Positions 5,883 through 56,695 of a stretch of 64,000 nt of DNA are shown here, one piece after another. Positions within the stretch are counted from its first letter, which is position 1. The number at the start of each line of letters is the position of its first letter. The notes beneath the pieces were generated by a model. It was given only the letters and a program-made list of their open reading frames with translations. It made no database searches and was not told the origin of the DNA. The stretch comes from Candidatus Aenigmatarchaeota archaeon (GTDB lineage Archaea; Aenigmatarchaeota; Aenigmatarchaeia; Aenigmatarchaeales; JACQIB01). Location of the stretch: the NCBI GenBank assembly GCA_043799675.1, contig JAZDNN010000024.1:7418-71417 (forward strand), written 5' to 3'. The position numbers and the translations under genes are program-made.

Positions 5883-6046
5883 TGGTGGGGTCGGAGAGAT
5901 TTGAACTCCCGTCCGCTGGTATCACCATCGGGCAATCATCACGGTCATATTTGGCCGCTCATCGCTCCAGCAACATTCTGGAGCCAGCTATCCTGCCTGG
6001 CTTTGTCAGACGCAAGACCTAACTTGCGCCTTTAGACTACGACCCC
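5883..6046 (-). tRNA. tRNA-Trp(CCA) with two introns
   Basis: 164 nt.
- Acceptor: GGGGTCG/CGACCCC.
- Anticodon stem: GCTGG/CCAGC, loop CUCCAGA.
- Intron at 37/38: 57 nt (5921..5977).
- D-loop intron after nt 13: about 29 nt (about 6005..6033). The BHB is relaxed with one U-U mismatch, so the boundaries are approximate.
- T arm: GGGAG-TTCAAAT-CTCTC.
- CCA is encoded. Confidence 0.8.
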
Positions 6047-6130: not shown

Positions 6131-6218
6131 TGGAGCCTCGGGAGGGAATTGCACCCTCGACCTGCTGTTTGCTTGGTTGCTTACAAGACAGCCGCTCTTC
6201 TGCCTGAGCCACCGAGGC
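6131..6218 (-). tRNA. tRNA-Thr(UGU) with a 12-nt mini-intron
   Basis: 88 nt.
- Acceptor: GCCTCGG/CCGAGGC.
- D arm: GCTC-AGGCAGAA-GAGC.
- Anticodon stem: GCTGT/ACAGC. The loop is CUUGUAA after removing a 12-nt intron (6170..6181; central helix CUUG/CAAG, bulges UAA and CAA).
- T arm: GAGGG-UGCAAUU-CCCTC, with an atypical G at position 55.
- CCA is encoded. Confidence 0.8.
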
Positions 6219-48362: not shown

Positions 48363-49196
48363 TTAGCTGCGTATTCCGCGGATTGTCCCTGTCGTGAACA
48401 CATTGTTGCCCTGGTCGACGTAATCTATCCGCACCGACACGCTGTACGGGTCCCCTGCGTTGCCGTTATTTCCCCGGCCGACATACCATGCGCTGTAATC
48501 GGGTTCCAGAGTTGGCGCGTTGATGTTGCTCAATAACGTTCCGTTCAGGGATACCAAGGCAATAGTTATAGCGTAATTGAAATGGGAATTCAGCAGGAGC
48601 ATCCTGAAAGTGCCGTTATGCGAGTAATCTGCATCGATCACGTCTATGCTGCCGAAATCGGATATCATCTTCGGCGTGCATGCCTGCGATTCCTGCGGTT
48701 TTGTATTATTCAGACCGCACGAAGCGGCATCAACACACGTACGCGTCTGCATCGCATTGGCGCCGCAAACCGACCACGCGCTGCACTGCCATACCGGGGC
48801 GCACGTGCATGCATCGCTTTCGGATGGCTTGCCTACGGTCGTCCCGCAGTGGTTCGAATCGCTGCACGTCCTTGTCTGGGTTCCCCCGACGCACAGGGAC
48901 CACGCACCGCAATACCAGTTCGGCGTACAATGGGTCACCTGCGCACAGCCGTTGGTTTCCTCCGGCCTGCCCGTGTTCGTACCGCAGGAGTTCTCATCAA
49001 CGCACGTCCTGGTCTGGACTCCGGAGACCGAGCATGCGCTCCATGCGCCGCACTGCCAGTCCGGCGTGCATACAGCTGGTGTCGGTTCGGGTTCAATCGG
49101 CCTTACAATAAACTGCATGACGAATACCAACGCAAGCGCGATGAGCATCAGGGACAATATCAGGATGACGGCGTTTTTGCTTCCGAATTTCAGCAC
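48363..49196 (-). CDS. membrane-anchored protein with three TSP1-like cysteine repeats (tandem paralog 1)
   Basis: 277 aa. An N-terminal TM anchor is followed by three copies of C-T-P-x-W-x-C-G-A-W-S-x-C-x3-G-x-Q-T-R-T-C-x-D-x-N-x-C-G-x5-P-x-E-x3-C and a beta-rich C-terminal domain. Confidence 0.6.
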   Translation of the reverse strand: MLKFGSKNAVILILSLMLIALALVFVMQFIVRPIEPEPTPAVCTPDWQCGAWSACSVSGVQTRTCVDENSCGTNTGRPEETNGCAQVTHCTPNWYCGAWSLCVGGTQTRTCSDSNHCGTTVGKPSESDACTCAPVWQCSAWSVCGANAMQTRTCVDAASCGLNNTKPQESQACTPKMISDFGSIDVIDADYSHNGTFRMLLLNSHFNYAITIALVSLNGTLLSNINAPTLEPDYSAWYVGRGNNGNAGDPYSVSVRIDYVDQGNNVFTTGTIRGIRS

Positions 49197-49260: not shown

Positions 49261-50127
49261 TTAGCTGCGCTCTCCGGAAACCGTTCCGGTAACTGAAAAC
49301 CCGTTACTGCCGCTATCCAAGTATGTCATCGTTACAGCGAGGGTATATGGATCTCCAACGTGGCCATTCACTCCCATGGTATTTGTGCCTGTCAGCCATA
49401 CCCTTTCCAGAGGGAATAAGTTCATGGGCACGTTCATGGATGGTATTTGTAAACCGTTGACGCTTACAGACGTAATGCTGATGGTATCGCCAACCCTGTC
49501 CTCCACCCACAATTTTAACGTACCATTTGCAGCGTAATCGACATCCAGCACACCTATGTTCGTGAAGCCGCTGATTGTCTTGGGAGTGCAGGTCTGTGAT
49601 TCCTGCGGTTTGCTTGTCGTTGTCCCGCAAGAATTCGTGTCAATGCATGTTCGCATCCGCGTTCCGCCGGCACCGCACGCGGACCATGCATCGCATTGCC
49701 AGTTAGGAGTACATGTACATGGTTGTGTTTCCAAAGGCCTGTCGCTAAACAGATTGCATCTGTTTGCATCCGTGCATACCCTGCTCTGATTTCCCGAATT
49801 ACTGCAATTGGTCCATGCACTGCACTGCCAGTCAGGCACGCAGGGTGGCGTGCAGAACTGGGTTTCAACAGGCTTGTTATAATTCACGCTGCAGGAATTC
49901 GCATCTATGCATGTCCTTGTCTGCGTTCCTGAAGCGGAGCATGCATTCCACGCCCCGCACTGCCAATCAGGCGTGCATACTGGGGGCATCAGAGGCCCAC
50001 TTGGCTTAATCAGGGATTGCACAATATACAACGATGCAAGCGCAACGATTATTACAGCCAGAACCAAGATAATGACGTTTTTCTTTTCGGATTTAGGCAC
50101 ACCTATTTTCTTTTCTGACTTAGGCAC
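49261..50127 (-). CDS. membrane-anchored protein with three TSP1-like cysteine repeats (tandem paralog 2)
   Basis: 288 aa with the same architecture as 48363..49196. The N-terminal PKSEKK is duplicated. Confidence 0.6.
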   Translation of the reverse strand: MPKSEKKIGVPKSEKKNVIILVLAVIIVALASLYIVQSLIKPSGPLMPPVCTPDWQCGAWNACSASGTQTRTCIDANSCSVNYNKPVETQFCTPPCVPDWQCSAWTNCSNSGNQSRVCTDANRCNLFSDRPLETQPCTCTPNWQCDAWSACGAGGTRMRTCIDTNSCGTTTSKPQESQTCTPKTISGFTNIGVLDVDYAANGTLKLWVEDRVGDTISITSVSVNGLQIPSMNVPMNLFPLERVWLTGTNTMGVNGHVGDPYTLAVTMTYLDSGSNGFSVTGTVSGERS

Positions 50128-50210: not shown

Positions 50211-51795
50211 ATGGAGCAGGAACCTGAAAAGCAGACAGGCAGTCTGCCGAAGGAAATCAAGAAAATCAGCGAGGTCGTCTGGGAACTGCCCACCAGCTAC
50301 AAGAAAGGCATGCGCGTGCCGGCAAGAATATATGCGACCAAGAAGCTGCTCGATGCGATGGACGCGGGAGTGTTCGAGCAGGTCACCAACGTCGCGACCC
50401 TGCCGGGAATCGTCAAGCATGCGTTCTGTATGCCGGATGGGCACTGGGGTATGGGTCAAGTCGCGGCTTGATTCACTCAAATATGGGTTCCCAATCGGCG
50501 GCGTGGCTGCATTCGACCCGAAGGTCGGCGTGATCAGCCCGGGCGGCATCGGGTTCGACATCAACTGCGGCATGAGGTTCGTCACTACCAACCTTACTGT
50601 CAAGGACGTCAAACCCAAGCTGAAAGAACTGGTGGATATCCTGTTCAGGACGGTTCCCGCGGGCGTGGGCGGGGAAGGGTTTGTAAAATTAAGCCGCAGC
50701 CAATTCGACGAAATAATGGTCCAAGGGGCCAATTGGGTCATCGAGCACGGCTACGGTTGGAAAGAGGACACGGAAAGAATAGAGGAGTACGGCTGCATCA
50801 AAGGTGCTGATCCGTCAAAGGTCAGCGACAAGGCAAGGACCAGAGGCATCACGCAGATGGGGACGCTCGGCTCAGGGAACCATTACCTGGAAATCCAGAC
50901 TGCCGAGAAAATTTTCCTTCCCGAAGTCGCAGAGGCATTCGGCGTGAACGAACAGGGGCAGATAGGGGTGATGGTGCACTGCGGCTCGAGGGGGTTCGGC
51001 CACCAAATCGGAACGGATTATCTCAGGATATTCGACATGGCAATGAAGAAGTACAACATCACGGTGCCTGACAGGGAGCTTGCCTGTGCGCCTTTTGCGA
51101 GCCAGGAAGGACAGGATTATTATCACGCGATGGCCTGCGCGGCAAACATGGCTTTTGCCAACAGGCAGGTGATTTTGCACAGGATACGCGAGGCTTTTGC
51201 AAAGGTGTTCAGGAAATCCCCCGAAGACATGGAAATGCACCTGGTGTACGATGTCGCGCACAACGTGGCCAAGGTGGAGAAACACCTGGTCGACGGTCAT
51301 GAAAAGGAACTGGTGATGCACCGGAAGGGGAGCACGCGCTGCTTCGGTCCGGGTAGGCCGGAGATTCCTGAAGCTTACCGCAAGGTCGGCCAGCCGGTGA
51401 TTGTGGGCGGCAGCATGGAAACGGGCAGCTTTTTGTGCGTGGGCACGGACAAGGCTCTGACAGAAACATGGGGAAGCACCATGCACGGCGCGGGCAGAAC
51501 CATGAGCAGGACTTCAGCGAGGAACCAGGGCTCGGGCTTGGCGTTGCAGAAGAAGATGGCCAAGGAAGGGATACTGGTGGAAGCCACGAGCATGAGCGGG
51601 CTTGCAGAGGAAGCGGGCTTTGCCTACAAGGACCTGAACGAAGTGGTCGAGACCATGGAAATCGCGGGCGTGAGCAGGAAGGTCGTTCTGCTGAGGCCTT
51701 TGGGTAATATTAAAGGCACCGCCCGGGCCTCATACAGCCTTTTAGCTTTCCCCATACTTGTCATGGTCTTGGCCTTGATTTCGTCCCTTATCTGA
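50211..51795 (+). CDS. rtcB: RNA-splicing ligase RtcB, coding sequence interrupted by a 31-nt BHB intron (exon 1 50211..50450, exon 2 50482..51795)
   Basis: - Exon 1 (80 aa) ends ...LPGIVKHAFCMPDGHWG.
- Exon 2, in another frame, starts YGFPIGGVAAFD...GGIGFDINCGMR, and HCGSRGFGHQ and further motifs follow.
- Joining at 50450/50482 recreates the universal MPD.H.GYGF.IGG motif.
- Unspliced, the first frame stops at 50469-50471 after 86 aa.
- The C-terminus carries a hydrophobic extension of about 25 aa after the usual ...IKG end. Confidence 0.85.
50451..50481 (+). other. predicted bulge-helix-bulge (BHB) intron within the rtcB mRNA
   Basis: - Central helix: UGGG (50445-48) / CUCA (50476-79).
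- Bulges: GUA (50449-51) and AAU (50480-82), each 3 nt.
- Inner helix: 9 bp, UGGGUCAAG/CUUGAUUCA, with loop UCGCGG.
- Cleavage after the 2nd bulge nucleotide on each side removes exactly the 31 nt needed to restore the frame. Confidence 0.75.
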
Positions 51796-52859
51796 ACGAT
51801 AAGCGGTTCGACCTGTTTCCACCTCGTGATGTTCTTGCCGATTATTTCGAGAATCAATTCCTTTTTGGCCGTTTTCTCGGGATGCCTCAACGGCAGCAAT
51901 TCGAGCATCCGACGGACATCGGCCTTCCTGAAGATTTCTAAGGCGAAATAATCCTTGCTGTATCTTATACTGACCCCATGAGTGTCTCTGCCGTCCCCGC
52001 GCCTGAAAATCCTGTATAGAATTGGATTAAAGCCCTGTTCCCTTAGTTGCCGTTTTATCCTACCAAGCAAGGTTTTATTTTCGGTGCCTATCCGCATACA
52101 ACACTGCAAATTTTCCCTGATTTTCTTGACCAGAAGCGACCCTTCCGCATCGAAGTAGCCGGCCAGGAACGACAGGAAAACATTCCGTTCGGATTCGACC
52201 AACTCTGAAATCAATCGTTTCCTGTTTTCCAGCAAGAGGAAGTCGAAGCTGTTGTCGAGGTCTGCGGATGTCGTCCACATGTAATTTCCAAAAGTTCTGT
52301 TCTTCGCAGGATATGTCCTTACCTTCGCATATCCTTTGAACAGGCTCTCGAAGACATCCAGGAATCCTTCATGAGTCGTGTTGGTTATGGCCCGAATGGT
52401 ATGCTTCGATCTTCTGAAGGCTGTCACATCACCCTCCACGAAACCAACCATGTAAGCCTTTTCTTCATCCTTTCCATCAAAACTTTGCCGTTCATGTTTC
52501 CTGTTTGTCAGCAGGATAGCCTCATCGTTTCCACGCACCCGAAAGCCGTTTTCTTCCAGCACCTTATGCAACGTGCCTTTGGAAGAACCAAATTTCTTGG
52601 CCAGCTTTTTCAACGATATTTTCTCCGTGTCATAAAGTCTCAGAATTTCCGTCACAGGCAGGTGTTTCCTGTGAGACAACGAATGTGCCTGACTGAGATT
52701 CCTTATCGGTATGTCAAGTTTGATGAACCGTTTTCTTACGGCCGACCACGATATATCGTCTCCGAGCTTAACACTCAATATCGCCGCCACTTCTTTGAAC
52801 GTCTTACCGGACGAATAGAGACTCTCGGCTTCCTTCAGGAGTTCGCTGTTCAGCTTCAT
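51624..52859 (-). CDS. LAGLIDADG endonuclease-like protein with N-terminal HTH domains
   Basis: 411 aa. There are two N-terminal HTH-like segments (GKTFKEVAAIL and ISLKKLAKKFGSSKGTLHKVL), then LAGLIDADG motifs (YMVGFVEGDVT and FLSFLAGYFDAEGS). It lies directly downstream of the DGR RT. Its last 172 nt overlap the 3' end of rtcB on the opposite strand. Confidence 0.65.
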   Translation of the reverse strand: MKLNSELLKEAESLYSSGKTFKEVAAILSVKLGDDISWSAVRKRFIKLDIPIRNLSQAHSLSHRKHLPVTEILRLYDTEKISLKKLAKKFGSSKGTLHKVLEENGFRVRGNDEAILLTNRKHERQSFDGKDEEKAYMVGFVEGDVTAFRRSKHTIRAITNTTHEGFLDVFESLFKGYAKVRTYPAKNRTFGNYMWTTSADLDNSFDFLLLENRKRLISELVESERNVFLSFLAGYFDAEGSLLVKKIRENLQCCMRIGTENKTLLGRIKRQLREQGFNPILYRIFRRGDGRDTHGVSIRYSKDYFALEIFRKADVRRMLELLPLRHPEKTAKKELILEIIGKNITRWKQVEPLIVQIRDEIKAKTMTSMGKAKRLYEARAVPLILPKGLSRTTFLLTPAISMVSTTSFRSL

Positions 52860-52914: not shown

Positions 52915-53991
52915 CTAATCATGCAGAATACATCCAAAAATATTATTATACCTTCCAGCGAGCGCATTTCTCAACCTGAACGTGTCGCCCTGCGCCGCAT
53001 AGGCCATCCAGCCCTCAAGGCTTTTCGCAGCCTGTTCTGCCGAAATCTCACCGGATTCGTACTGCAGTCTGAGTGCCGTCATCCTTTTTTCGAGCTTCAG
53101 CAGGTTCCTCCTTTTTGGAATCCTGTAGTGGTAGAACACCCTGAAGCCGAGCAACGATATCCCCTTATGCAAAGGGTAGACCTGCGATTTTTCCTCATGC
53201 AACTCTAGCTTTAACCGTTGTTTGAGGAACCCGTTTATCCCGCTCCTGAACTGCATCAGCGCGGCCTCAGACCTGTCCAGAATCACGAAGTCATCTACAT
53301 ACCGGAGATAGAACCTTGCCTTAAGCACGTGCTTCACGAAATGGTCCAGCTCATTCAGGTAGACGTTCGCGAAGAACTGGCTCGTCTGATTGCCTATCGG
53401 CATCCCCTTCGGCAGGGCAGGGTCGTTGTTCGACAGGATTTTCCGTACCAGCCAGAGCACGCTTTCGTCCCTTATTTTTCTCCGTATGATGCCAATCAGG
53501 ACATCGTGGTCGACGCTCGGGAAATAGTGCCTTATGTCGGCCTTCAGTGCATAGCCGACCACCATGTTGTTGTCCTTCGCGCCGTGCACCAAACGGCCGT
53601 TCCCGGAAACCTTTCGCTTGAAGCAATCAAACCTGTCCAATGCTGCCAGGCCGCCCTTTCCCTTCCTGTTGGCGTAGCTGTCGTGGATGAACGTTTTGTC
53701 GAAAATCGGTTCGAGCACGTTGCATAACGCATGATGGACAACACGGTCCCTGAAATGCGAGGCATGAATTACCCGTGTCTTGGGGTCGCGGATGATGAAC
53801 CGTTTCAACGGGCGCGGCGAATACGTACGATTTTCAAGCTCAGTTTTCAAATCTGCCAATTCGCCATCAAGATTAGCTTCGAATCTTTTGACATACCATT
53901 TCTTCGACTTGCCCTTCCTCGCCTTTCTGAATGCCAGCAAAAGGTTCTCTGGCGAGCAGACCTTTCCGTAAAGGTTGTCAAATGTTTTCAA
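52915..53991 (-). CDS. DGR-type reverse transcriptase
   Basis: 358 aa with an apparent TTG start. RT motifs 1-7 include RVIHASHFRDRVVHHAL, the DGR-diagnostic PIGNQTSQFFANVYLNELD (I/LGxxxSQ) and the catalytic YLRYVDDFVIL. It has no maturase or endonuclease domains, and it sits 30 nt downstream of the TR. Confidence 0.85.
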   Translation of the reverse strand: MKTFDNLYGKVCSPENLLLAFRKARKGKSKKWYVKRFEANLDGELADLKTELENRTYSPRPLKRFIIRDPKTRVIHASHFRDRVVHHALCNVLEPIFDKTFIHDSYANRKGKGGLAALDRFDCFKRKVSGNGRLVHGAKDNNMVVGYALKADIRHYFPSVDHDVLIGIIRRKIRDESVLWLVRKILSNNDPALPKGMPIGNQTSQFFANVYLNELDHFVKHVLKARFYLRYVDDFVILDRSEAALMQFRSGINGFLKQRLKLELHEEKSQVYPLHKGISLLGFRVFYHYRIPKRRNLLKLEKRMTALRLQYESGEISAEQAAKSLEGWMAYAAQGDTFRLRNALAGRYNNIFGCILHD

Positions 53992-54040
53992 AAATATCCC
54001 CTATCGGCGGCCCGTGCTATTGGCGCAGACCCCGTTGTCA

Positions 54041-54073
54041 TTCAGGCTTCCCGCCAAAAGGCAATGAGGAAGT
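54041..54073 (-). other. TR intron 3 (33 nt, predicted BHB)
   Basis: Sense-strand layout: CAGG | AAA | CUUCC-UCAUU-GCC-UUUU-GGC-G-GGAAG | CCUG | AAU. That is a perfect 4-bp central helix CAGG/CCUG, 3-nt bulges and a 5-bp inner helix. Confidence 0.75.
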
Positions 54074-54098
54074 TTCCTGTTCGAGGGCCTGTTCGCAT

Positions 54099-54129
54099 TT
54101 ATGCCGGCGGAACGTTTCCTTCCAACCGT
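54099..54129 (-). other. TR intron 2 (31 nt, predicted BHB)
   Basis: Sense-strand layout: AUGC | GAA | CGGU...GCCG | GCAU | AAA. That is a perfect 4-bp central helix AUGC/GCAU, 3-nt bulges, and an inner helix CGGU/GCCG enclosing a GGAA-ACG-UUCC hairpin. Confidence 0.7.
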
Positions 54130-54145
54130 TCGCATTGAAGCACCC

Positions 54146-54162
54146 TTGACGGCCCGAAGGCT
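54146..54162 (-). other. TR intron 1 (17 nt, predicted BHB)
   Basis: Sense-strand layout: GACG | AGA | GCC-UUCG-GGC | CGUC | AAG. That is a 4-bp central helix GACG/CGUC, 3-nt bulges, and an inner GCC/GGC helix with a UUCG loop. Confidence 0.7.
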
Positions 54163-54436
54163 CTCGTCCGTGTTCCAATCCGACCTGACGGAAGGGTTTC
54201 GGTAGCCTCTCCACCGACATGACACCGCGGCTTCAATCTTCGGGAACCTACCAACTGAAACCGCTGAATTTAATGGCACAAGCATTCGGACGGCATGAAA
54301 TGCCATCGCACCATCTTGCGCTCTATGGAAAGGCGTATAGCGCGGGCCTTTGCCGGGAGAATGAAATACCCGCCCCCCGATTGGGAAGGAAAGAACTCTG
54401 TCATGCAAAAATTGAGGGACGAAACGATTTATGCGC

Positions 54437-55183
54437 CTATTTTGAGGTCTTAACCGCTTTTTTTGCGGCGCAGACCCCGAGGTCATGCCTGAGCGAGGGC
54501 CCGCCCGCATCCGCATCGAAGCACCCCCCGTCGGAGTGCCAAGTCGACCTGACGGAAGCCACTTCAACCGGGATTAAGGCTTCTGTTTCGATTTCTACTA
54601 TATCCAGTTTGTTGTCTTTCATCCTGTAAGAAGCCGCTTTCTGTTTGGCCAGCTTTTGGATGACCTCAAGATTATGATTCCAGTAATCGTCCATCGTTGC
54701 CTTGTATTCCTTGTCGGAATTCATCAGTTCAGCCGACTCCTGTGCCTTGAAGTGTCTTACTCCAAAGTCCAGCTTGAACTCCTCGGGTATTCTCTGATAG
54801 ACCAGTTCCTGGATTATCCTGTCCGCATTGGCGATGAACCCTTTGCGTTTATAGTCCCTGAACTTTCCTGCGTCCCCTTTGGCCATCAGGAGCGCATAGC
54901 CTTTCTTTTCAAGGTCCTTTTCCAGCCTCTTTCCGTCAATTATGGCCAATATTTCATCGACCTCTCCCAACCTTTCTTTTACAGAAAAATCATCATCAAA
55001 TATTACAGAGCCATTGTAAGCGGCCAGCTTCGAATCATACGCGCCTGCTGCACGCAGATAATCGAGAACACAGCCTTCAACAGTTACAGGCACGGCTTTT
55101 CCCGTGAACCTGAATTCCCCGTCGATAATCCTCACTTCAGGCTCGGGCATCACGACCGTTGTTATTTTGCTCATGATAATCAT
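54437..55183 (-). CDS. DGR target protein B (VR near C-terminus)
   Basis: 248 aa. The C-terminal ...SVRSTWHSDGGCFDADAGGPSLRHDLGVCAAKK is encoded by VR-B. The N-terminal 200 aa are unrelated to targets C and D. No signal peptide is seen. Confidence 0.7.
   Translation of the reverse strand: MIIMSKITTVVMPEPEVRIIDGEFRFTGKAVPVTVEGCVLDYLRAAGAYDSKLAAYNGSVIFDDDFSVKERLGEVDEILAIIDGKRLEKDLEKKGYALLMAKGDAGKFRDYKRKGFIANADRIIQELVYQRIPEEFKLDFGVRHFKAQESAELMNSDKEYKATMDDYWNHNLEVIQKLAKQKAASYRMKDNKLDIVEIETEALIPVEVASVRSTWHSDGGCFDADAGGPSLRHDLGVCAAKKAVKTSK
54467..54558 (-). repeat. DGR variable repeat VR-B (92 nt)
   Basis: Colinear with the spliced TR. There are 16 differences, 14 at TR adenines and 2 at G positions. 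Confidence 0.75.
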
Positions 55184-55186
55184 TCT

Positions 55187-55912
55187 TCAGAAGTGCTTCT
55201 TCACGACTTCGAGGTCTTTCATCAAAGCGTCATATTTCTTTGACTTTTCCAGAAGCTCCCGGTATTCGCTCTCCGCGACCTCGCACATCTTCGGAAGCTC
55301 GGCCTTCTCGTCCGTTTTAAGGAGGGCGCAGACCCCGTCGTCAGCCCAGTGCGAGGGCCTGCCCGCAGTCGCATTGAAGCACCCCTCGCCCGTGGTCCAA
55401 GCCGACCTGACGGAAGCTTCACCGTTTTCAAACGAGATGCTTCCCCTCCAGACCTTCTTTTTCGGTTTCTTGAACAGCCCGGCATTCACGAGTGTATCAA
55501 AGACGTCCGATTTGCTTATCCCGGCCCTTGTTCTTTTGCCGTCATATTTGAGTTCACCGTTCACTTCCTTCACGACGGGGTCGGCTATTATCTCGCCCTT
55601 CTCAAGGGCGACTTCCCTGTTGTGCAACCAATAATCAATATTCATTTTCTTGAACGACTTGTCCTCGTGCACCAAATCGTAAGAAACCTGCAACGGCAGG
55701 AGCGTGTAGCGCTCGCCGACCTTCTTTGATACTTCCTGACCGAGAAGCGTCATCTGCCTGTGGTCGAGGTTCGCCACGAGGCCATTGCCTTTGTAGTCGT
55801 TGTGCCCTTCGGCAGGACTTCCCTTCCATTTCGGGAAATACACCGTTTCCTTGCCCGTGGGCGGCACTATCTTTCCCGCTATCTCATGGACGATTTCGGC
55901 CTGTGTTACCAT
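55187..55912 (-). CDS. DGR target protein C
   Basis: 241 aa and a paralog of target D (shared ...GKETVYFPKWKGSP.EG.ND...VGERY..LP.Q.SYDLVH.D.SFKKM). VR-C encodes SVRSAWTTGEGCFNATAGRPSHWADDGVCA, followed by a helical tail of about 40 aa. Confidence 0.7.
   Translation of the reverse strand: MVTQAEIVHEIAGKIVPPTGKETVYFPKWKGSPAEGHNDYKGNGLVANLDHRQMTLLGQEVSKKVGERYTLLPLQVSYDLVHEDKSFKKMNIDYWLHNREVALEKGEIIADPVVKEVNGELKYDGKRTRAGISKSDVFDTLVNAGLFKKPKKKVWRGSISFENGEASVRSAWTTGEGCFNATAGRPSHWADDGVCALLKTDEKAELPKMCEVAESEYRELLEKSKKYDALMKDLEVVKKHF
55326..55417 (-). repeat. DGR variable repeat VR-C (92 nt)
   Basis: Colinear with the spliced TR. There are 11 differences, all at TR adenines (11 of 22 A positions changed, 0 of 70 non-A positions). 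Confidence 0.8.
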
Positions 55913-55972: not shown

Positions 55973-56695
55973 TCAATCGCCGCATTCGTCCAAAGCCGCT
56001 TTCCTAAAATCCAACGATTTAGGAGGGTCCTTCAGAAACTGTTGATATTCGCTCTCCGCAATCTTGCGCACCTTCGGCTTCTCAACGGCCTTGCCCGTTT
56101 TCACGAAGGCGACAACCCCGCGGTCAGGCCCGGAGGAGGGCCAAGACGCACCCACAGCGAAGCACCCAAAACGGTTTCCCGACTTGACGGAAGAAATGCC
56201 GTCATTCTCGTAAATGATGCCCCAATCACAGACGTTGTGATTGAGCTGCTTGAACAGTTTTGCGCTGGCAAGCGTCTTTATCACGGACTCTGCGTCAATG
56301 TTCGCCTTTACGCTCCTGCAACCATCATTGAGCCTGAGCTCGCCGTCGACTTCGCTGACAATCGGGACGGAAATAACATCCCCGTTTCTCCGTATGACTT
56401 CCCTGTTGATTATCTTATAATCGGCCATCATTTTCTTGAAACTTCTGTCATTATGCACCAAATCATAACTCGTCTGAAACGGAAGTTCGGCATAACGCTC
56501 GCCCACTTTCTCGGATATCATCTGACCCAAGAACACGGACTGCCACTTATCGAGAGTCGCAACAAAACCCTTACCGTAACGATCGTTGCGTCCTTCTATC
56601 GGACTTCCCTTCCACTTCGGAAAATACGCCGTTTCCTTGCCGGTAGGCATCCTAATCTTGTCCAAAATTTCATAGACGATTTCAGCTTCACCCAT
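55973..56695 (-). CDS. DGR target protein D (degenerate VR)
   Basis: 240 aa and a paralog of target C. The VR-like segment encodes SVKSGNRFGCFAVGASWPSSGPDRGVVA. Confidence 0.65.
   Translation of the reverse strand: MGEAEIVYEILDKIRMPTGKETAYFPKWKGSPIEGRNDRYGKGFVATLDKWQSVFLGQMISEKVGERYAELPFQTSYDLVHNDRSFKKMMADYKIINREVIRRNGDVISVPIVSEVDGELRLNDGCRSVKANIDAESVIKTLASAKLFKQLNHNVCDWGIIYENDGISSVKSGNRFGCFAVGASWPSSGPDRGVVAFVKTGKAVEKPKVRKIAESEYQQFLKDPPKSLDFRKAALDECGD
56108..56193 (-). repeat. DGR variable repeat VR-D (86 nt, diverged)
   Basis: Alignable to the spliced TR, but with a 6-nt deletion, several non-adenine differences and a diverged 3' boundary (GGGGTTGTCGCC against GGGGTCTGCGCC). It is probably no longer a homing target. 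Confidence 0.55.

Follow-up and report, generated by a model that had tools for sequence, protein, structure and literature searches.

We identified, within the 64-kb stretch of DNA analyzed here (the window), a locus that its gene content and order mark as a chromosomal DGR of an archaeon of the Aenigmatarchaeota (DPANN). On the minus strand, three paralogous target genes are followed by an RT-16 RNA, a template repeat (TR), and the gene for the DGR reverse transcriptase (RT; Table 1). The RT is encoded by an intact open reading frame, is 100% identical to NCBI MFH0829935.1, matches Pfam RVT_1 at 3e-16, and contains the motifs IGNQTSQ and RYVDDF. The form [LIV]GxxxSQ in RT motif 4 marks the DGR clade. 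Homologs of this protein comprise thousands of DPANN RTs that are flanked by TR/VR pairs, and its best NCBIfam match, below cutoff, is a group II RT/maturase model. The VRs lie at the C-terminal ends of the target ORFs 54437..55183 and 55187..55912. None of the three target proteins could be placed in a Pfam or NCBIfam family, even at E = 0.5, and no Avd-like ORF was recognized adjoining the TR or the RT gene. As is known for the RT-16 motif, the RNA scores above the gathering threshold beside an RT gene; what is new here is its exact placement against the TR. Of 27 related loci tested, 24 (13/14 and 11/13) have the 3' end of RT-16 directly against the first TR nucleotide, whether or not the TR has introns, which supports one single RNA and suggests that in this clade RT-16 may form the structured 5' part of the DGR RNA. 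A conserved AATAG is found directly 3' of the TR in relatives.

Table 1. Features of the window that are discussed in the text (positions are those of the window).
Feature	Position	Strand	Remarks
tRNA-Thr(UGU)	6131..6218	-	12-nt BHB intron 6181..6170; calibrates the cleavage register in this genome
rtcB (RNA 3'-phosphate/5'-OH ligase)	50211..51795	+	Pfam 3.6e-157; 31-nt BHB intron 50451..50481
DGR reverse transcriptase	52915..53991	-	358 aa, TTG start; IGNQTSQ and YVDD motifs
DGR template repeat (TR), genomic form	54022..54194	-	173 nt; 4 exons and 3 BHB introns
TR exon 4	54022..54040	-	19 nt; TR/VR alignment
TR intron 3	54041..54073	-	33 nt; BHB; AAU codon split
TR exon 3	54074..54098	-	25 nt; TR/VR alignment
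TR intron 2	54099..54129	-	31 nt; BHB at alignment gap
TR exon 2	54130..54145	-	16 nt; TR/VR alignment
TR intron 1	54146..54162	-	17 nt; phase 0 relative to the VR reading frame
TR exon 1	54163..54194	-	32 nt; colinear with both VRs
RT-16 RNA (Rfam RF03019)	54197..54373	-	57.2 bits; gathering score 50
VR	54467..54558	-	in target gene 54437..55183(-); 16 mismatches to spliced TR, 14 at adenines
VR	55325..55416	-	in target gene 55187..55912(-); 11 mismatches to spliced TR, 11/11 at TR adenines
Decayed VR-like segment	56108..56193	-	in third paralogue 55973..56695(-)

The TR is interrupted by three inserts, and only after their removal does it yield a 92-nt sequence that aligns to the two VRs without gaps. 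Recomputation reproduced all of the TR coordinates, insert lengths, and mismatch counts given in the initial annotation. Over both VRs, 25 of 27 mismatches fall at TR adenines, which account for 22 of the 92 bases of the spliced TR, and no non-adenine mismatch lies near a junction. Substituted adenines had been said to abut the junctions, and mismatches at spliced positions 31, 48, 49, 72, and 73 do flank them. Comparison of the TR with VR 55325-55416 reveals identity at all 70 non-adenine positions, with every adenine kept in the TR, and by this adenine-specific mismatch pattern the copy at 54022..54194 is identifiable as the template. The decayed VR-like segment also lacks inserts at junctions 2 and 3. 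A search of the whole 64-kb window recovered no copy colinear with the unspliced 173 nt, and no second TR-like copy either. Read in frame, the TR gives ..WNTDEGCFNANANRPSNRNDNGVCA and includes several AAC/AAT codons. A side claim had been that the inserts sum to 27 codons and leave the unspliced TR open; the ORF in question (54001..54567) exists, but a multiple-of-three sum is not kept in relatives (71 nt in locus L002, 84 nt in L003, and 70 nt in L004). We rejected a coding role for this ORF, which overlies structured RNA.

Each insert sits in a bulge-helix-bulge (BHB) motif with a 4-bp central helix and two 3-nt bulges on opposite strands, in canonical register. The motifs read as first described: GACG/AGA/GCC-UUCG-GGC/CGUC/AAG for intron 1, AUGC/GAA/CGGU..GCCG/GCAU/AAA for intron 2, and CAGG/AAA/CUUCCU..GGGAAG/CCUG/AAU for intron 3. 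The inner helix has 3-6 bp, and the outer (exon-exon) helices are indeed weak, with 0, 2, and 0 bp for introns 1, 2, and 3. The strict hBHBh' form has flanking helices h (outer) and h' (inner) of at least 2 bp (PMC5829648). Because the inner helix is present but the outer helix is weak or absent, the TR motifs appear to fit the relaxed HBh' form rather than the strict one.

Cutting after the second bulge nucleotide makes the TR colinear with the VRs, and the same register operates elsewhere in the window. For example, the identical cut at the tRNA-Thr(UGU) intron (6181..6170) leaves a 7-nt anticodon loop, and removal of the rtcB intron (50451..50481) restores the reading frame (...CMPDGHWG/YGFPIGGV...), both as initially proposed. 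An uninterrupted rtcB allele in locus L082 has exactly the sequence predicted for the window junction. At a tRNA-like gene, 5883..6046(-), combinatorial removal of BHB candidates followed by ARAGORN gave too many solutions.

With the strict motif taken to need four Watson-Crick pairs in the central helix and 3 or more inner pairs, its chance rate at a fixed position pair is 2.3e-4 in the window; when 13 placements are permitted at each gap, the chance of the three TR hits is ~3e-8. Scanning the window for the motif alone is unspecific (78 matches vs. about 60, range 48-69, in shuffles); the TR motifs are significant because they coincide with the alignment gaps, and not by virtue of the scan. 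The minimum-free-energy fold of the whole TR is unexceptional (z = -1.06). Locally, the motif is reproduced for intron 3 (z = -3.1), for intron 2, and for the rtcB intron, and is partly recovered for intron 1, whose full 4-bp central helix does not form.

We then evaluated the distribution of such inserts in 91 loci with a confident TR-VR pair, that is, the window and 90 related DPANN loci. TR/VR pairs were sought by gapped dynamic programming in which opening a gap was made expensive and length was also penalized; several alignments were considered for each locus, and a filter for adenine bias was applied. We counted inserts of 12-120 nt that are present only in the TR, and those that qualified are 15-57 nt long. 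One to three such inserts occur in 29 of the 91 loci (the window and 28 of the 90 others), while intron-less TR alleles, which the initial annotation had suggested looking for, are present in sister lineages. Thus, the observation made at a single locus holds, but its scope was understated, since TR introns are widespread in a DPANN DGR clade. The most widespread site is that of intron 3, and intron density reaches three per 92 nt of exon in the window TR. An assembly artefact was rejected given the identical architecture in independent assemblies. Wu et al. (2017; PMC5758913) explain differences in length between TR and VR by slippage at AAC repeats. Such slippage fits the 3- and 6-nt indels of intron-less loci and was rejected for structured inserts of 15-57 nt.

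A strict BHB is found in 36 of 43 inserts from the window and 80 genome loci, compared with 4.1-4.7% at control positions (binomial P ~3e-41, which overstates independence because the loci are phylogenetically related); the other seven have only 3 of 4 central pairs. The BHB register was picked within +/-6 nt of the alignment gap, so pairing is somewhat inflated, and controls were given equal freedom. Pooling gave 52 distinct inserts, or 50 once two of 71 and 90 nt with poor alignment were dropped. Across these, the central helix is 90-98% paired through many pair types, against 17-42% for controls in which the partner strand was slid out of register; the inner helix is likewise 90-98% paired, and in the outer helix only 62% of cases pair at the first position and 33% at the second. 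Adenine is the third nucleotide of the 5' bulge in 49/52 inserts and the first of the 3' bulge in 48/52. Splice sites favor AAY codons, the adenines of which make up the bulges. Covariation was assessed on site-3 intron cores only (26 loci), as cores from mixed sites were misaligned by MAFFT. In these, 97.3% of cells are paired vs. 69.7% in shuffles, a value reached by 0 of 500 shuffles, and 57 cells have changed on both sides vs. 19 in shuffles.

Intron-bearing TR-VR pairs together have 424 mismatches at TR adenines and 13 at other bases. Within 6 nt of a junction, 24 of 26 pairs have no non-adenine mismatch, and L012 and L019 have one each. All VRs examined have exact junctions, free of indels and of non-templated bases. 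Four relatives with 82-85% RT identity (L001 and L081-L083) have all three introns in common with the window, with nearly identical exons and variable intron loops; intron 1 is kept in all of them with loop and helix changes. By this comparison the TR introns are ancestral to five close relatives, and hence old. The two VRs of the window carry different TR alleles. VR 55325-55416 matches the window-specific TR bases exactly, while VR 54467-54558 agrees at positions 15, 24, and 26 with the TR allele of the relatives, and its two non-adenine mismatches are that same allele. Introns common to the relatives, together with VRs that carry TR substitutions of their own lineage, show that homing took place from an intron-bearing TR, and so these TRs are active templates.

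Given the directly observed colinearity, motif, register, covariation, phylogenetic spread, and activity of intron-bearing TRs, we infer, with a probability of roughly 85%, that TR RNA is cut by EndA and ligated by RtcB before it is reverse transcribed. The inserts recur in 28 of 90 related loci, and the host tRNA-splicing machinery is therefore the most likely processor of the template. The initial annotation had read the locus as BHB splicing of TR RNA ahead of reverse transcription, and every computational test we ran agrees with this reading. The primary transcript would contain RT-16 and the TR and would probably run on into the RT mRNA. Host EndA would cut it after the second nucleotide of each 3-nt bulge, and RtcB would join the exons. 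Only the 92-nt spliced TR would then template adenine-mutagenic reverse transcription and homing into the VRs.

The rtcB gene lies ~1.1 kb from the RT gene in the window. In the window and in L003, L005, and L082, no more than about 3 kb separates rtcB from the DGR, an arrangement seen in 0 of 62 intron-less loci. For EndA, a tblastn search of the 64-kb window gave no match to an approximate M. jannaschii query. With an outer helix this weak, as in the relaxed HBh' form, one expects a host EndA of the broad-specificity type; a strict-specificity EndA would not cut TR introns without an outer helix. The relaxed motif is known in archaea with broad-specificity EndA, DPANN included (PMC5829648).

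Other routes from an interrupted TR to uninterrupted VRs were weighed against splicing. One dispenses with ligation altogether, with the DGR RT skipping the hairpins, either by a jump across the stem base on intact RNA or by switching templates end to end among the exon fragments that EndA would leave. In its favor, the base of each hairpin insert brings the two junctions together, DGR and group II intron RTs are relatives (consistent with the best NCBIfam match, below cutoff), and group II intron RTs are able to switch templates. We nevertheless regard skipping as unlikely. It has no need for 3-nt bulges exactly 4 bp apart or for bulge adenines, yet these are conserved and covarying, and the same motif and register also act in tRNA-Thr and the rtcB mRNA, whose processing involves no RT. 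An RT that switches templates is usually imprecise, whereas the VR junctions are exact throughout, and an RtcB is present and linked to the DGR.

Even less probable is a remote template, that is, an intron-less TR at some other genomic position, with the interrupted one as a bystander or a duplicate in decay. Action of DGRs in trans on distant targets is known, and the sequence inspected is 64 kb of a 96-kb contig. Against a remote template stand the absence of a second TR-like copy from the window, the match of the interrupted copy to VR 55325-55416 at 70/70 non-adenine positions with all adenines kept, and its canonical place between the RT-16 RNA and the RT, like that of the intron-less TRs of relatives. 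Decay predicts point changes in the exons, yet these are the most conserved part, and the explanation would have to hold independently in all 29 intron-bearing loci. We give least credence to a dead DGR whose VRs are relics of an ancestral intron-less TR that gained its inserts later. The two non-adenine mismatches of VR 54467-54558 and the third paralogue with its decayed VR could be taken this way, but an older TR allele explains the former. Although the introns are old (five lineages, 82-85% RT identity), VR 55325-55416 matches window-specific TR substitutions; in addition, the RT ORF is intact with its catalytic motifs, and insertion at random would not have produced three BHBs in register.

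The proposed splicing of the TR brings together two known systems, DGRs and BHB introns, and it is the combination that is new. DPANN DGRs described previously (PMC4372165, PMC5758913) resemble the one in the window in their [LIV]GxxxSQ RT and TR just upstream of it, in C-terminal VRs of paralogous targets encoding an NxN..PSN.N..G motif, in adenine-specific mismatches, and in having no recognized Avd gene near the TR and RT. The window system differs in the BHB introns, one to three per TR in the clade, and in a TR that matches its VRs only after splicing. The published descriptions of DPANN DGRs that we examined, these two included, do not mention introns or splicing in TRs, and the literature searched held no prior description of intron-containing TRs, in line with the novelty remark in the initial annotation. 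One of the related loci (L023) belongs to Nanoarchaeota SCGC AAA011-G17, the genome analyzed by Paul et al. (2015; PMC4372165), and its TR holds an 18-nt BHB insert.

Archaeal BHB introns, which occur in pre-tRNA, pre-rRNA, and a few pre-mRNAs and are processed by EndA and RtcB, share with the TR inserts the central helix, the bulges, the cleavage point, and the form of a short hairpin (15-57 nt in TRs). The TR case differs in its extreme intron density and preference for AAY codons, and in that the host RNA is a retroelement template and not a tRNA, rRNA, or mRNA, so that splicing is recorded in DNA through cDNA homing. The closest parallel is an experiment on the Bordetella phage BPP-1, in which a TR engineered to carry a self-splicing group I intron reportedly showed that the information passes through an RNA intermediate. 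In both cases the intron is gone before the information reaches the VR, which receives the spliced sequence. The BPP-1 intron is artificial, self-splicing, and in a phage, while the window introns are natural, probably protein-dependent BHB introns, up to three in number and conserved in archaeal lineages.

DGR finders that need contiguous TR/VR similarity truncate or miss such TRs, which biases archaeal DGR censuses as well as any estimate of target diversity; one TR affected in this way belongs to the Nanoarchaeota genome of the 2015 study. As to why the introns persist, we favor, as a guess, insertions that are tolerated or even slightly useful and that lie at AAY codons, from whose adenines the A-rich bulges are drawn. 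They may be hard to lose because cDNA-mediated intron loss would also corrupt the template adenines. We consider it rather doubtful that they are a selected control layer of the retroelement, in which the TR templates diversification only after EndA/RtcB processing. Were this so, the tRNA-splicing pathway would govern a mutagenic retroelement, the DNA copy with its interruptions would be shielded from self-homing and TR-VR recombination, and, with a linked and itself BHB-interrupted rtcB, a feed-forward circuit would connect the activity and the expression of the ligase with hypermutation.

The spliced junctions offer a sequence-only validation of BHB cleavage rules in uncultured organisms, and the model makes predictions that can be tested, on the specificity of EndA in Aenigmatarchaeota and Nanoarchaeota and on splicing as a possible gate to hypermutation. 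For the EndA/RtcB pathway of Archaea, the retroelement template would be a new class of substrate, with an unusually high local intron density. The VRs would be a permanent DNA record of the putative splicing event and an indirect witness of the spliced RNA. Thus, dozens of uncultivated archaeal lineages would provide a natural demonstration that DGR information passes through a processed RNA.

When the three inserts are removed from the 173-nt template repeat (TR) of the diversity-generating retroelement (DGR) and the product is aligned without gaps to the window, it is colinear with both variable repeats (VRs), as the initial annotation had claimed. The 92-nt spliced TR, 22 of whose 92 bases are adenine, differs from VR 55416..55325 at 11 positions, 11/11 at TR adenines, and from VR 54558..54467 at 16 positions, 14 of them TR adenines. 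No colinear copy of the unspliced 173-nt TR was found in the 64-kb window. Each VR is in frame and occupies the C-terminal end of its gene, and the spliced TR, translated as ..NANANRPSNRNDNGVCA, is by its sequence a typical AAY-rich DGR template. The third tandem paralogue has a decayed VR-like segment (56193..56108) with many non-adenine differences and with 17 nt of exon 1 replaced by a divergent 10-nt stretch. It too has no inserts at junctions 2 and 3, and seems to be no longer rewritten by the DGR.

Features of the DGR locus and of the interrupted genes in the window
Feature	Position	Strand	Remarks
Paralogous target genes	55973..56695, 55187..55912, 54437..55183	-	first in minus-strand order
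RT-16 structured RNA (Rfam RF03019)	54373..54197	-	57.2 bits, gathering score 50
TR	54194..54022	-	173 nt
TR intron 1, BHB	54162..54146	-	GACG|AGA|GCC..GGC|CGTC|AAG
TR intron 2, BHB	54129..54099	-	ATGC|GAA|CGGT..GCCG|GCAT|AAA
TR intron 3, BHB	54073..54041	-	CAGG|AAA|CTTCCT..GGGAAG|CCTG|AAT
Reverse transcriptase (RT), 358 aa	53991..52915	-	begins 30 nt beyond TR; IGNQTSQ and YVDD motifs
rtcB	50211-51795	+	true start 50211; 31-nt BHB intron 50451-50481 shifts frame
tRNA-Thr(UGU)	6218..6131	-	12-nt intron, CTTG|TAA|..|CAAG|CAA

On the minus strand, the three target genes are followed by the RT-16 RNA, the TR and the RT, which is 100% identical to NCBI MFH0829935.1 (a Candidatus Aenigmatarchaeota MAG, 96,411-nt contig). 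Ordinary chromosomal genes surround the locus (Trm1, polyprenyl synthetase, glycosyltransferase, TrmB, RtcB). Between the RT and rtcB is an ORF (51624-52859, minus strand) that encodes LAGLIDADG_3 and HTH domains, its 3' end overlapping that of rtcB by ~170 nt; a homologue adjoins RtcB in the related locus L003, and in L082 the RT-rtcB gap is apparently too short for this gene. Directly beside rtcB are two tandem paralogous ORFs (48363-49196 and 49261-50127, both minus strand) with ~130-nt internal repeats (families D1, D2, D5). Their upstream regions resemble each other (D8), and no Pfam family matches either ORF.

Our scanner recovered all three bulge-helix-bulge (BHB) motifs as initially annotated. 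Each TR insert runs from the third nucleotide of the 5' bulge to the second of the 3' bulge. Cutting the tRNA-Thr(UGU) intron in this same register leaves a 7-nt loop, CUUGUAA, and removing the rtcB intron in this way restores the frame (..CMPDGHWG|YGFPIGGV..), both as had been proposed. The outer helices, described earlier as weak, comprise 0, 2 and 0 bp for introns 1, 2 and 3, and the introns are therefore of the relaxed HBh' kind, a form reported to be cut by broad-specificity tRNA-splicing endonuclease (EndA) (PMC5829648). Extra-loop DPANN EndAs have been linked with disrupted tRNA genes (PMC5829648). Local folds reproduced the BHB for introns 2 and 3, and that of intron 1 only partly. A strict BHB occurs in the window with a frequency of 2.3e-4 at a fixed position pair. 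A motif-only scan of the window was unspecific (78 matches vs about 60 in shuffles), so significance lies in the coincidence of the BHBs with independently defined TR/VR alignment gaps.

Just downstream of tRNA-Thr is a tRNA-like gene (5883-6046, minus strand; GGGGTCG...CGACCCCACCA), detected solely as a weak match to the tmRNA model. It has a good T arm, is ~90 nt too long and probably carries multiple or non-canonical introns; no unique splicing solution was found for it.

We then considered related loci fetched through RT homology (80 GTDB-genome loci and 80 metagenome loci). In each, the 600 nt preceding the RT was compared with the remaining sequence by an aligner that tolerates TR-adenine mismatches and long TR-only gaps. 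Confident TR-VR pairs were obtained in 91 loci, window included. TR-only inserts of 12-120 nt are present in 29 of these (three inserts in seven loci, two in seven, one in fifteen), and the intron-less TRs that the initial annotation suggested seeking in relatives make up the other 62. Intron bearers are mostly Aenigmatarchaeota, along with Nanoarchaeota, Woesearchaeota and Nanoarchaeia, and one of them is SCGC AAA011-G17, the source genome for the first description of archaeal DGRs (PMC4372165). The TR of this Nanoarchaeota archaeon (L023:1716-1733, AQRL01000028.1) has an 18-nt BHB insert, CTCG|AAA|TCT..AGA|CGGG|ACT, located 16 nt before the TR 3' end and missing from both VRs; the text of the 2015 description does not mention it (PMC4372165).

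Across intron-bearing TR-VR pairs, 424 mismatches fall at TR adenines vs 13 at other bases. For the window and the 80 genome loci, 36 of 43 inserts form a BHB within the alignment slack (all four central pairs, plus two or more inner pairs), and the remaining 7 lack one of the four central pairs and have strong inner helices. Random positions with the same freedom pass at 4.1-4.7% (binomial P ~3e-41, which overstates independence, the loci being related). With junctions defined by the BHBs, spliced TRs agree with their VRs just as well as with the junctions placed by the aligner itself; 24 of 26 pairs show no non-adenine mismatch within 6 nt of any junction, and mismatches at adenines are often directly next to one.

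Frequent 3- or 6-nt indels relative to the VRs were seen in intron-less TRs of more distant relatives (L021, L024, L038, L061-L063, L065, L068, L074, L102, L125). Codon slippage, to which TR/VR length differences have been ascribed (Wu et al., 2017; PMC5758913), accounts for these indels, which are distinct from the 15-57-nt structured inserts.

The pooled set contains 52 distinct inserts; two from locus L156 (71 and 90 nt, poorly aligned), which are probably spurious, were left out of later analysis. Pairing at the four central positions is 90-98% and involves CG, GC, AU, UA and GU alike; it falls to 17-42% when the partner strand is slid by 1-3 nt. Adenine is the third nucleotide of the 5' bulge in 49/52 inserts and the first of the 3' bulge in 48/52. 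At the most widespread site (26 introns, alignment A6), 97.3% of cells are paired vs 69.7% in shuffles, 0/500 of which reach the observed value. Cells differing on both sides number 57 vs 19 in shuffles, with a covariation score of 0.82 vs 0.29, and slid controls pair at 21-43%. The exon half of the central helix (CAGG, CTCG, TGCG, CGAG) varies according to the residue it encodes, and the intron half (CCTG, CGAG, CGCA, CTCG) changes to match.

All three TR introns are shared with L001, L081, L082 and L083 (82-85% RT identity), where exons are nearly invariant and substitutions cluster in the loops of the introns. At exon positions 15, 24 and 26 the window TR departs from most of these relatives. 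Its specific bases are present in VR 55416..55325; VR 54558..54467 has the relatives' TR allele at all three positions (vs the L001, L081 and L083 TRs, alignment A4), which accounts for its two non-adenine mismatches (15, 26) and one of its 14 "adenine" mismatches (24). This VR thus seems to derive from an older TR allele and to have escaped rewriting ever since; its neighbour tracks the current allele. Because the VRs follow different TR alleles and the introns are shared, homing took place after the lineage split, with the introns already in place. Such intron-bearing TRs are active templates, and the allele tracking contradicts the least plausible alternative, that the DGR is a dead element.

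Splicing of the TR RNA before reverse transcription, as the initial annotation proposed, is the reading best supported by the register, comparative, covariation and allele-tracking evidence. The TR RNA would be cut by EndA and joined by the RNA ligase RtcB, and the spliced RNA would then undergo adenine-mutagenic reverse transcription; we assign this a probability of roughly 0.85. An RT that skips hairpins, or switches template between cleaved fragments, is improbable, as it leaves the conserved bulge geometry and the exact junctions unexplained. Very improbable, too, is that the template is an intron-less TR in some unseen part of the genome.

In the window the RT-16 RNA stops 1-3 nt short of the TR, and the same spacing is seen in 24 of 27 related loci, whether or not the TR has introns (13 of 14 loci that are nearly all intron-bearing, 11 of 13 that are mostly intron-less). 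The interval between the TR and the RT start codon is only ~30 nt in this DPANN clade. Here RT-16 looks like a general structured domain at the 5' side of the DGR RNA, and the introns like an addition to it.

The TR introns combine two known kinds of element, the DGR and the BHB intron. In the openly readable full-text literature we found no paper linking a DGR template to BHB motifs, a splicing endonuclease or TR splicing, and the DGR papers among it make no mention of TR introns. Co-occurrence of DGR and RtcB was met only in an unrelated jumbo-phage survey. The introns may gate DGR activity or protect the TR. Their splice sites fall within AAY codons, and the adenines of these codons make up the bulges. 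Were unspliced cDNA to enter a VR, adenine mutagenesis would destroy the bulge adenines and the intron could not be spliced from the target mRNA, which may explain why VRs never carry introns.

The rtcB intron (TGGG|GTA|..|CTCA|AAT) has an 11-bp inner helix. Its junction is confirmed by the intron-less allele of the metagenome locus L082 (3080..2631), whose RtcB is 93% identical and uninterrupted, with exactly the predicted spliced sequence; annotation pipelines would wrongly start the protein at 50332. RtcB lies within ~3 kb of the DGR in four TR-intron loci (window, L082, L003, L005), in three gene arrangements, and in 0/62 intron-less loci. This proximity may reflect functional linkage, and is no more than suggestive, since the counts come from related loci with uneven flank lengths and carry no phylogenetic correction. 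As rtcB is the gene for the exon ligase, maturation of the ligase mRNA would itself require the ligase.
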